A stretch of DNA of 64,000 bases from Escherichia coli (GTDB lineage Bacteria; Pseudomonadota; Gammaproteobacteria; Enterobacterales; Enterobacteriaceae): NCBI RefSeq assembly GCF_030013205.1, contig NZ_CP122648.1. One strand, given 5' to 3'. The notes beneath the pieces were generated by a model. The model saw only the letters and a program-made list of their open reading frames with translations, had not been told where the DNA came from and made no database searches. Position numbers and translations under genes: made by a program. Shown in pieces: positions 5,298 through 33,574 of the stretch (its first letter is position 1; the number at the start of each line of letters is the position of its first letter).

Positions 5298-5317
5298 AAA
5301 ATCCTTGTTGATGAAAA
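5298..5317. repeat. attL core: left copy of 20-bp direct repeat AAAATCCTTGTTGATGAAAA (native pdxB start GTG-AAA-ATC-CTT-GTT-GAT-GAA)
   Basis: Exact 20-bp repeat also at 32441..32460; the left copy is preceded by GTG and continues the pdxB N-terminal codons (V)KILVDE before diverging into phage DNA. Confidence 0.7.
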
Positions 5318-30222: not shown

Positions 30223-30429
30223 TCACCCGATAAACCAGATAACAAACGCTATCAACATCGCCCCAATAGCTGCCGGGAAAAGTCCTTTGGTATAAGCGGC
30301 GATATATTCAATGCTGAGTTCAATAAAGCGTTCTTTATGTCCCGTTAACTTGCGAAACAAATAGATCTCTATTACGCCTATCTCAATAAAAACAAGGGTC
30401 AGAATGGCGCTGATGATATGGCTGGTCAT
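30223..30429 (-). CDS. Small hydrophobic membrane protein
   Basis: 68 aa with two predicted TM helices, directly downstream of cox. Confidence 0.45.
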   Translation of the reverse strand: MTSHIISAILTLVFIEIGVIEIYLFRKLTGHKERFIELSIEYIAAYTKGLFPAAIGAMLIAFVIWFIG

Positions 30430-30435
30430 TTATGA

Positions 30436-30723
30436 CTAAAGTCCCAGCCACAACAACCATGCGTCGCGGCGTTCTTTCGGTTGCTCAAAAAACGCTTTGC
30501 GCATGCCTTCGTTAAATGCTGGCAGATATACCCAGTTTTCTGATGCACGCGTCTTTACTGAACCTGGTTTCACAAAGTCAATTGTTGGTAGCTTTGCTGC
30601 GTCAATCATGGTTCTGACTGTGGATTCCTTGCGGCCGATCATCTTGGCGAATAGTTGATATGGCACCGCTTCAAGTGGATATGGTGCTACCTGAATGAAC
30701 CCCCCAAGCTCTGATTCGCTCAT
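30436..30723 (-). CDS. cox: Cox-like excisionase / early repressor
   Basis: 95 aa; ...YQLFAKMIGRKESTVRTMIDAAKLPTIDFVKP...WVYLPAFNEG...RRDAWLLWLGL matches P2 Cox (YWVYLPAWNNG...RDGWLMWLGL). Confidence 0.85.
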   Translation of the reverse strand: MSESELGGFIQVAPYPLEAVPYQLFAKMIGRKESTVRTMIDAAKLPTIDFVKPGSVKTRASENWVYLPAFNEGMRKAFFEQPKERRDAWLLWLGL

Positions 30724-30782
30724 TGTGGTAATCTCCCTAATTCGTTCGAATGGCTCAAAATGGCTTATATCGGCTTATTTGA

Positions 30783-31157
30783 GTGTTTTTATGTTTGTGC
30801 CCGATGTGGCATGTTGTGATGGAGGATATGCCCGATATGGCATCTTTGTCAAGCATGGGTGAAAAATTTCGCCTGATTCGTGAAGCAGAAGGTATGACCC
30901 GCCAGGAGTTTGCGGATTGTGTTGGGCTGCCTTATGGGACGGTAACTAACTATGAGGTGAGGGGGAAGCAAGTAACAGAGGGTGCCTTACTTAAGGTTAC
31001 GAAACACCCTAAATTTAAGAAGTATGCTTATTGGTTATCAACAGATGAAACGATGCCGGAGGTCGGGCAAATTTCTCCGGCTCTCTCTCTTGATGGTTCC
31101 TGCAATTCGGAGGGAGATCGCGTTTCAACCGAAACAATCCAAAAATTATCCCGCTGA
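30783..31157 (+). CDS. Immunity repressor (P2 C-like)
   Basis: HTH region ...QEFADCVGLPYGTVTNYE... and C-terminal ...KYAYWLSTDE...VGQISPALS resemble P2 C; true start probably an internal Met (about 30837). Confidence 0.75.
   Translation: MFLCLCPMWHVVMEDMPDMASLSSMGEKFRLIREAEGMTRQEFADCVGLPYGTVTNYEVRGKQVTEGALLKVTKHPKFKKYAYWLSTDETMPEVGQISPALSLDGSCNSEGDRVSTETIQKLSR
30799..30843. promoter_or_regulatory. Putative C-repressor operator: 14-bp direct repeats GCCCGAT(G/A)TGGCAT in the C/cox switch region
   Basis: Repeats at 30799..30812 and 30830..30843 between divergent cox and C; P2 C is known to bind direct repeats at the early promoter. Confidence 0.45.
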
Positions 31158-31253: not shown

Positions 31254-32258
31254 ATGTCGATTAAGAAGCTCGAAGATGGTCGTTATTTGCTGGACATCAG
31301 GCCGAACGGACGCAAGGGAAAGCGCGTGCGTAAGGTATTTGACAAAAAATCGGTAGCGGTGGCCACTGAACGCTACATCATGGCGAACGCTGAAAAGCGG
31401 GAATATATACAGGGCTACCGTGATCGTCGAACGCTAAATGATTTGCTTGAGTTGTGGTGGATGTATCACGGCCAGCACAGGCGTAAGGCGGAAGAAGACC
31501 GAAAACAACTGCGCAACATAATCAATGAGCTTGGCGCTGATATGCAGGCTGTGGATCTTGATAAGCTGAAAATTATCGCGTGGCGTTCTCAAAAGATAGC
31601 TGATGGATTGAAACCGTCATCTGCTAACAGGTACATGAATCGGTTATCCGGAATGTTTACCGTGCTGAAAAAAATAGGTCTTTGGGATGCAGAACATCCA
31701 GTAAGGGGAATTTCTATTCTTTATGTATCTCCACGAGAAATGGCGTTCCTGTCACAGAAGGAAGTGGCGCTATTGCTCGATACACTGGAGGGCGACTACT
31801 GGCGTGTTGCGCTTTTGTGTTTAAGCACAGGGGCGCGCTGGAGTGAAGCTTGTAAGCTTCGTGGTGAACAGATAGTTCATAACCGTGTAACGTTTCTTGA
31901 AACCAAAAATGGCCGGAAGAGAACAGTGCCAATTTCGCAGGCAGTTTGTGAGGCGATCAAAACCAGAGAAACAGGCGGCTTGTTTGAGGTGAAGTACCGG
32001 GAATTCTGCCTGGCGCTGAAAAGAGTTAAGCCCGATTTACCAAAAGGCCAGGCTGCACATGTGCTGCGGCATACGTTCGCCAGCCATTTTGTGATGAACG
32101 GAGGAAACATTATTGCGCTTCAGAAGATTCTTGGTCACGCAACCATTCAGCAAACAATGGCATATGCGCATTTTGCACCGGATTACCTGCAGGATGCGGT
32201 GGCCCTTAATCCGCTGAAAGGTGGCGTAAGTGTCCACGCAGTGTCCACGGGGGATTAA
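31254..32258 (+). CDS. int: Tyrosine integrase (P2 Int-like)
   Basis: MSIKKLEDGRYLLDIRPNGRKGKRVRKVFDKKSVAVA... is close to the P2 Int N-terminus; C-terminal region has HxxR and a catalytic Tyr context; adjacent to attR. Confidence 0.9.
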   Translation: MSIKKLEDGRYLLDIRPNGRKGKRVRKVFDKKSVAVATERYIMANAEKREYIQGYRDRRTLNDLLELWWMYHGQHRRKAEEDRKQLRNIINELGADMQAVDLDKLKIIAWRSQKIADGLKPSSANRYMNRLSGMFTVLKKIGLWDAEHPVRGISILYVSPREMAFLSQKEVALLLDTLEGDYWRVALLCLSTGARWSEACKLRGEQIVHNRVTFLETKNGRKRTVPISQAVCEAIKTRETGGLFEVKYREFCLALKRVKPDLPKGQAAHVLRHTFASHFVMNGGNIIALQKILGHATIQQTMAYAHFAPDYLQDAVALNPLKGGVSVHAVSTGD

Positions 32259-32416
32259 TTTTATATAGCCTGAAACGGCTTAAAGGGCGATACTGAATAA
32301 CAATTTTTCAGTATTGCCCGTCTAAATGGTTATGTTGTTATCTGTATGATTATTAATGTTTTTTCAGATTAAACAGCAGTTTGCAAATGGGCGTTTGTTG
32401 ATAAAGGAGCCTTAGA

Positions 32417-33574
32417 TTGTCAGAGACTGAAAAAGGGTTAAAAATCCTTGTTGATGAAAATATGCCTTATGCCCGCGACTTATTTAGCCGTTTGGGTGAG
32501 GTGACCGCGGTTCCCGGGCGTCCAATCCCCGTGGCTCAACTGGCAGACGCGGATGCGCTGATGGTGCGTTCGGTCACGAAAGTGAATGAATCTTTGCTGG
32601 CAGGAAAACCCATTAAATTTGTTGGCACTGCCACCGCGGGGACCGACCATGTCGATGAAGCGTGGTTAAAGCAGGCGGGAATTGGTTTTTCCGCGGCACC
32701 AGGCTGTAATGCGATTGCGGTGGTGGAATATGTTTTCTCCTCACTGCTGATGCTTGCCGAACGCGATGGATTTTCACTGCGCGAGCGTACCGTGGGGATC
32801 GTGGGCGTTGGTAACGTTGGTCGGCGTTTACAGGCACGACTGGAAGCGTTAGGGATTAAAACCTTACTTTGCGATCCGCCTCGCGCCGACCGTGGGGATG
32901 AGGGTGATTTCCGCTCGCTGGATGAATTAGTTCAGCATGCGGATATTCTGACTTTCCATACGCCACTCTTTAAAGATGGTCCGTACAAAACGCTACATCT
33001 GGCGGATGAAAAACTGATCCGTAGCCTGAAGCCCGGAGCGATTCTGATTAACGCCTGCCGTGGCGCAGTCGTCGATAATACTGCCCTATTGACCTGTCTG
33101 AACGAAGGCCAGAAGTTAAGCGTAGTGCTGGATGTCTGGGAAGGCGAACCGGAACTCAACGTGGAATTGCTGAAAAAAGTGGATATCGGCACGCCGCATA
33201 TCGCAGGCTATACCCTGGAAGGTAAAGCACGCGGTACTACGCAAGTGTTTGAAGCCTATAGCAAGTTTATTGGGCATGAACAACACGTTGCGCTGGATAC
33301 GTTGCTGCCCGCGCCAGAGTTTGGCCGCATTACGCTGCATGGTCCGCTCGATCAACCGACGCTGAAAAGGCTGGTGCATTTGGTGTATGATGTGCGCCGC
33401 GATGACGCACCGCTGCGTAAAGTCGCCGGAATACCGGGTGAGTTCGATAAGCTGCGCAAAAACTATCTTGAGCGCCGTGAATGGTCATCTCTGTATGTGA
33501 TTTGTGATGACGCCAGTGCGGCATCATTGCTGTGTAAACTGGGTTTTAACGCCGTTCATCATCCGGCACGTTAA
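32417..33574 (+). CDS. pdxB: Erythronate-4-phosphate dehydrogenase with phage-supplied 5' end
   Basis: Body matches PdxB ([15 protein letters not shown]...); here the reading frame starts at TTG 32417 behind an AAAGGAG Shine-Dalgarno in phage DNA, giving MSETEKGL + KILVDEN... Confidence 0.85.
32441..32460. repeat. attR core: right copy of the 20-bp direct repeat, inside the pdxB 5' coding region
   Basis: AAAATCCTTGTTGATGAAAA identical to 5298..5317. Confidence 0.7.

Follow-up and report, generated by a model that had tools for sequence, protein, structure and literature searches.

Two direct repeats at the cox/C switch of the prophage described here, R1 and R2, are very probably the two operator sites of its P2-type C repressor at the early promoter, Pe, as judged from sequence comparison. 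The repeats had previously been proposed as plausible half-sites of a C operator, and this proposal is strengthened by their position on either side of the predicted Pe -10 element, the P2-type C protein, the invariance of the repeat cores, the way in which they change together with C, and the homologous positions occupied by the operators of P2 and WPhi. The switch is of an ordinary and well-understood kind. A concrete candidate operator and early promoter are thereby available for a P2-family immunity type present in ~4% of complete E. coli genomes, including that of strain IHE3034, and predictions of immunity and superinfection exclusion become testable for these prophages.

The switch lies within a Xuanwuvirus (P88-like, P2 family) prophage that interrupts pdxB within its first codons, and has the gene order cox (minus strand), C (plus strand) and int (plus strand). 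The immunity region shares 99.8% identity with that of Xuanwuvirus P884B11 and 98.7% with that of phage PhiR44_2, and at least 80% of it is carried by 216 of 5426 complete E. coli genomes (about 4%). E. coli IHE3034 has the same prophage beside pdxB, and there PGAP places the start of C at the ATG equivalent to 30837. In the window (the whole 64-kb stretch of DNA that was analysed), a 20-bp att core, AAAATCCTTGTTGATGAAAA, is found at 5298-5317 and 32441-32460 and bounds a prophage of ~27 kb, the end of which gives pdxB a new 5' end (TTG at 32417); flk and pdxB are contiguous in prophage-free K-12. Directly downstream of cox, in the position of orf78 of P2, is a 68-aa hydrophobic ORF (30223-30429, minus strand) that matches phrog_14475, a family of unknown function, and gave no hit in Pfam. 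The features of the switch are as follows.

30436..30723, minus strand: cox, Cox family excisionase and lytic repressor, 95 aa (Pfam PF10743 Phage_Cox, 1.3e-22)
30750..30779, plus strand: three direct repeats in exact 10-bp phase, ATGGCTCAAA / ATGGCTTATA / TCGGCTTATT, adjoining the cox start
30799-30812, plus strand: R1, 14-mer GCCCGATGTGGCAT, equivalent by position to O2 of P2
30797-30812: R1 as a 16-mer, GTGCC-CGATGT-GGCAT, at about +5 to +18 of the predicted Pe transcript
30821..30826, plus strand: C ribosome-binding site GGAGGA, read from the sequence, antisense to the Pe -10
30823..30828, minus strand: predicted Pe -10 TATCCT (consensus scan, 18-bp spacer)
30830-30843, plus strand: R2, 14-mer GCCCGATATGGCAT, equivalent by position to O1 of P2
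30828-30843: R2 as a 16-mer, ATGCC-CGATAT-GGCAT, filling the Pe -35/-10 spacer and including the C start codon
30847..30852, minus strand: predicted Pe -35 TTGACA (consensus scan)
30837..31157, plus strand: C, immunity repressor of the P2 C family (WP_001390705.1), 106 aa (alternative start 30855)
31254..32258, plus strand: int, tyrosine integrase, second gene of the C operon

The first-pass annotation had described two 14-bp direct repeats 31 bp apart, and both are present on the plus strand. Their start-to-start spacing corresponds to about three helical turns, and the similarity between them extends to 18 nt (TGCCCGATGTGGCATGTT and TGCCCGATATGGCATCTT, 16 of 18 positions matching). They had also been placed between cox and C, which holds for R1; R2 contains the ATG at 30837 that is the PGAP start of C in IHE3034, and would be intergenic only if C began at the downstream ATG at 30855. 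When the region 30724-30860 was shuffled 5000 times with dinucleotides preserved, direct repeats at spacings of 15–60 bp reached a 13/14 match in 10 shuffles and a 16/18 match in two (p ~0.0004–0.002). A search of the 64-kb window for additional or distal operator copies recovered no other exact copy of the degenerate 14-mer GCCCGATRTGGCAT, and the two extra matches found when two mismatches were allowed are at the level expected by chance. P2 and WPhi are likewise reported to have no further operator copies (PMC1904268).

A consensus scan revealed a single strong promoter-like site directed toward cox (TTGACA-18-TATCCT), which matches 10 of 12 consensus positions and is taken as Pe; its transcription would start near 30816 on the minus strand. 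R2 lies within the spacer, separated from the -35 by 3 nt and from the -10 by 1 nt, and R1 begins 10 nt downstream of the -10, so the repeats flank the -10 of the predicted cox promoter, the point on which promoter prediction had been suggested as a check. The surrounding signals are shared by relatives. TGTCAA (with at most one mismatch) occupies the place of the Pe -35 in 33 of 35 representative C-type switches, TAnnnT is found at the place of the -10 in relatives, and GGAG or GAGG is kept at the C ribosome-binding site. The Shine-Dalgarno sequence of C and the Pe -10 are complementary readings of the same bases (30821-30828), an overlap that recurs in most of the other switch representatives. 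For the C promoter, Pc, neither the consensus scan nor a relaxed scan gave a convincing candidate at the switch, and TATATC at 30766-30771, which has the position of Pc in P2, is only a guess. The divergent orientation of cox and C-int, together with the predicted Pe, displays the Pe side of a converging-promoter layout, with Pc lacking a convincing sigma-70 match.

The C protein matches the structure of P2 C (PDB 2xcj/2l49, E 4.4e-16) and phrog_147 (3e-29), and is ~42% identical to the C gene products of WPhi and several P2-like phages. The structural match, the WPhi identity, the length of 106 aa and the presence of a Cox family partner agree with the original suggestion of P2-type rather than 186-type immunity, and by its sequence the repressor is a P2-type C and not a 186-type CI. 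A 186-type CI switch was rejected, given a 106-aa repressor of the P2 C family, a Cox family partner and no extra operator copies. An alignment places Y, T, N and G in the prophage C at the base-contacting residues Y31, S35, Y36 and R41 of P2 C (P2 residues from PMC2995052), so that three of the four differ. Among deposited phages outside this immunity group, none has a C more than 60% identical. Comparison with the immunity classes of Nilsson et al. 2011 covered class IX alone (PhiECO5 of UTI89), and this assignment was rejected with a C identity of only 43%. Literature searches for Xuanwuvirus and for palindromic C operators returned nothing relevant, and found neither an operator description for this immunity type nor a statement of the dyad reading of C operators that is developed below.

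Conservation was assessed in 33 loci from IMG/VR, phage records and genomes that have the same C recognition helix and represent 11 intergenic haplotypes. Their alignment has 17 variable columns, none of which falls in the 28 positions of the repeat cores. Under random placement, the probability that the cores would escape variation is 0.017 over 140 columns, and 0.0006 within a 75-column neighbourhood that holds 14 of the variable columns. Variation occurs directly beside the cores, at 30795-30797, 30816-30818 and 30827-30828. The conservation of R2 is partly confounded by its overlap with the C start codon, where coding or translation-initiation constraint is possible. Absence of conservation among phages sharing this C had been named beforehand as evidence that would count against an operator, and the cores proved invariant in all 11 haplotypes. 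Five of the 33 loci (three haplotypes) have TGTCCT or CATCCT in place of the -10 TATCCT; these substitutions at positions 1 or 2 of the -10, equivalent to 30827-30828, are found in L012, L014, L022 and their duplicates, which are otherwise identical prophages. Another locus, L020, has its -35 changed to TTGATA. The -10 and -35 variants may be promoter-down alleles of resident prophages or, for those of the -10, the -10 assignment may be imperfect.

Mosaic relatives separate the repeats from the neighbouring genes. In Shae_phiSM, L049, Chuche, L054 and L062, Cox is 96–98% and Int 98–99.7% identical to the proteins of the prophage, and C is only 46–50% identical. This group carries different repeat pairs at the same two positions, such as ATCACATGTAACC / ATCACATATGATCC and TTTCTCAACTTAGAAA / TTTCTCATATGAGAAA, and keeps the cox-side sequence. 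In ESSI2_ev239, L043, L044 and L029, C is 74–84% identical, Int 52–54%, and Cox about 40% or not detected, and the repeats are related to R1 and R2. Since the repeats change with C while Cox and Int remain nearly identical, they are inherited with C, as expected of a C operator, and are very unlikely to be sites for Cox or Int. C and its putative operator are exchanged together, like a cassette, while the cox and int genes on either side stay almost the same. A 195-aa fused repressor was also found between the same cox and int genes (L117:637-1224, which is E. coli H9Ecoli NZ_CP029180.1 4454960-4455547; also in L025, L052 and L066). A short linker joins its Chuche-type C module to a complete C module of the type in the window (or of the Shae type), and it has only Chuche-type operator repeats upstream. 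Its fusion junction occurs in 7 of 5426 complete E. coli genomes, and the protein may be an immunity repressor of two specificities.

In a lysogen, one C dimer would occupy each ~16-bp site. With centres 31 bp (about three turns) apart, the sites would share one face of the helix and binding by the two dimers would probably be cooperative, the three-turn phasing suggesting that binding is accompanied by DNA bending. Cooperative binding with DNA bending has been shown for the C proteins of P2 and WPhi (PMC1904263, PMC2995052). R2 would fill the Pe spacer and R1 would cover about +5 to +18, so that together they could exclude or trap RNA polymerase, and repression of Pe would shut off cox and the lytic genes. 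High levels of C would probably also damp its own expression. This autoregulation is proposed because R1 and R2 both fall within the leader and start region of the C transcript, and it has been reported for P2 (PMC3448106). Binding, stoichiometry, cooperativity and autoregulation are what we infer from the arrangement of the sites.

It is very unlikely that the repeats serve another protein of the switch (Cox, Int or a host factor) instead of C. Cox and Apl proteins likewise bind direct repeats (PMC7498355), and the TGTGGCA part of the repeat loosely resembles the P2-type Int arm consensus tgTGGaCa (PMC3448106), but the repeats change with C even where Cox (96–98%) and Int (98–99.7%) are nearly the same, and other candidate sites are present for both of these proteins. 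The array at 30750-30779 tracks Cox, being kept in phages with a Cox 96–98% identical and giving way to other phased repeats in those with a different Cox. It is likely the Cox operator, and probably lies over Pc, by analogy with the direct-repeat sites of 186 Apl, which are spaced by helical turns (PMC7498355). Clear Int arm-type repeats, two direct copies of GTGTCCAC, are found elsewhere, at ~32230-32250 in the 3' end of int, and on the opposite strand they match the P2-type arm-site consensus tgTGGaCa (PMC3448106). A further match to the phased repeats, ACGGCTTAAA, lies in the att arm at 32275-32284.

A role for the repeats mainly as promoter or RNA elements of the C transcript, either as an extended -10-like sequence for Pc (TGGCATGTT) or as hairpins around the C start, is improbable, if slightly less so than a role for another protein. 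The best promoter-like candidate on the plus strand, TG-n-CATGTT (30807-30815), does lie inside R1, and base pairing between the arms of R1 and R2 is possible in the predicted C leader, which would leave the Shine-Dalgarno sequence in a loop. However, the plus-strand promoter candidates score poorly, the C leader RNA folds no better than shuffled sequences (z = -1.43; 19 of 200 shuffles fold as well), and such a role leaves unexplained why unrelated repeats are found at the same two positions in heteroimmune relatives. The cox leader RNA also folds no better than its shuffles. Least likely of all is that the repeats are a chance or historical duplication of no function; there are only two copies, and the dyad within each repeat is not significant when taken alone, but the shuffle probability of ~0.0004–0.002, the lack of variation in cores whose flanking bases vary, and the recurrence of the architecture across the family all argue against it.

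Returning to R1 and R2 as operator sites of C, it had been stated that the C repressor of P2 binds direct rather than inverted repeats. The repeats are indeed direct, but each has inverted arms, TGCC-N6-GGCA, so the dichotomy is not a clean one. Symmetric pairs number 6 of 8 in R2 and 5 of 8 in R1, a level that for a single repeat has p ~0.47. Relatives are more informative. L042, which has the same recognition helix and a C 82% identical, has the sequences ATGCC-ACATAT-GGCAA and ATGCC-CGATAT-GACAT, in which three of the four arms are kept and central bases are changed. L029, which has a different helix, has ATGTC-TAATTA-GACAT, where a C:G pair has become T:A symmetrically in both arms. A survey of the 35 switch representatives, anchored on TGTCAA, showed exactly two peaks of dyad symmetry, which coincide with the places of the two repeats at ~43 and ~11 bp upstream of the anchor, with mean best dyad scores of 5.2 and 4.8 of 8 versus a background of 4.0 (Wilcoxon p = 0.0004 and 0.003, values that are indicative only, the switches being mutually related). 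A dyad of at least 7/8 is found at the distal site in eight classes, for example GGTGTCAATTGACACC, ATAACCGTACGGTTAT, and TTCACCATGTGGTGAA in UTI89. Dyad symmetry is absent in P2 itself, at the distal site of WPhi and in the ESSI2 type.

Taken together, the arms of L042, the symmetric change in L029 and the enrichment across the 35 switches make the internal dyad credible. The P2 C protein is a symmetric dimer that is surprisingly similar to proteins binding palindromes, yet it must read non-palindromic repeats (PMC2995052). For the immunity type described here, the sequences suggest, as the simplest reading, two dyads in phase, each bound by a single symmetric C dimer. The broader proposal, that the recognised unit is a ~16-bp dyad, ATG(C/T)C-N6-G(G/A)CAT, bound by one symmetric C dimer and presented twice on the same face of the DNA, that this is the common mode across P2-type C proteins, and that P2 C on its non-palindromic repeats is a derived exception, has in our view an even chance of being correct. 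If it is, the immunity type of this prophage, with 216 carriers among 5426 complete E. coli genomes, would lend itself to settling how the P2-type C family reads DNA. Many C-type operators appear to be tandem copies of a palindrome, which bears on how the symmetric dimer of P2 C reads direct repeats (PMC2995052).

Among known systems, phage 186 shares with the prophage a face-to-face lysis-lysogeny switch of the P2 family, but its CI is a two-domain protein of 196 aa that uses inverted repeats and distal sites, and it has cII and Apl (PMC1904263); none of these is present in the prophage. The arrangement suggested for the prophage matches that of C.Esp1396I, which has a directly repeated palindromic site, one dimer per site and a cooperative tetramer (as summarised in PMC2995052). 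C.Esp1396I belongs to unrelated restriction-modification control and its sites are 15 bp apart centre to centre; membership is not claimed. Closer are the operators of P2-type C proteins, which have two direct repeats flanking the -10 or -35 of the early promoter at a distance of 2 to 3.3 helical turns, and for which published repeat lengths and spacings are 8 bp and 22 bp in P2, 8 bp and 26 bp in P2 Hy dis, and 10 bp and 34 bp in WPhi (PMC1904268). P2 Hy dis also has direct-repeat half-sites for a P2-type C (PMC1904268), but they flank the -35 and are 2.5 turns apart, whereas those of the prophage flank the -10 and are separated by about three turns.

The P2 and WPhi pairs occupy positions homologous to those of R1 and R2, which answers favourably the comparison with known P2-family immunity regions proposed at the outset. 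The P2 record annotates two copies of GTTTAGAT, 22 bp apart, with O1 in the Pe spacer that separates the -35 from the -10, and O2 immediately downstream of the latter. P2 resembles the prophage in this placement of O1 and O2, as well as in its cox / C-int layout and homologous repressor. It differs in that its repeats are 8 bp long and have been described as non-palindromic (PMC2995052), while those of the prophage are 14–18 bp long, 31 bp apart and have TGCC-N6-GGCA arms. The published WPhi pair, GTCACCAATA, was located at the homologous place, 34 bp apart. It differs from the prophage repeats in sequence, length (10 bp) and spacing, and in WPhi the C start follows the -35, whereas that of the prophage lies inside the proximal repeat. 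WPhi and the prophage nevertheless have in common two direct repeats that flank the Pe -10 about three turns apart, TGTCAA beside the C start, and C proteins that are ~42% identical (PMC1904268).
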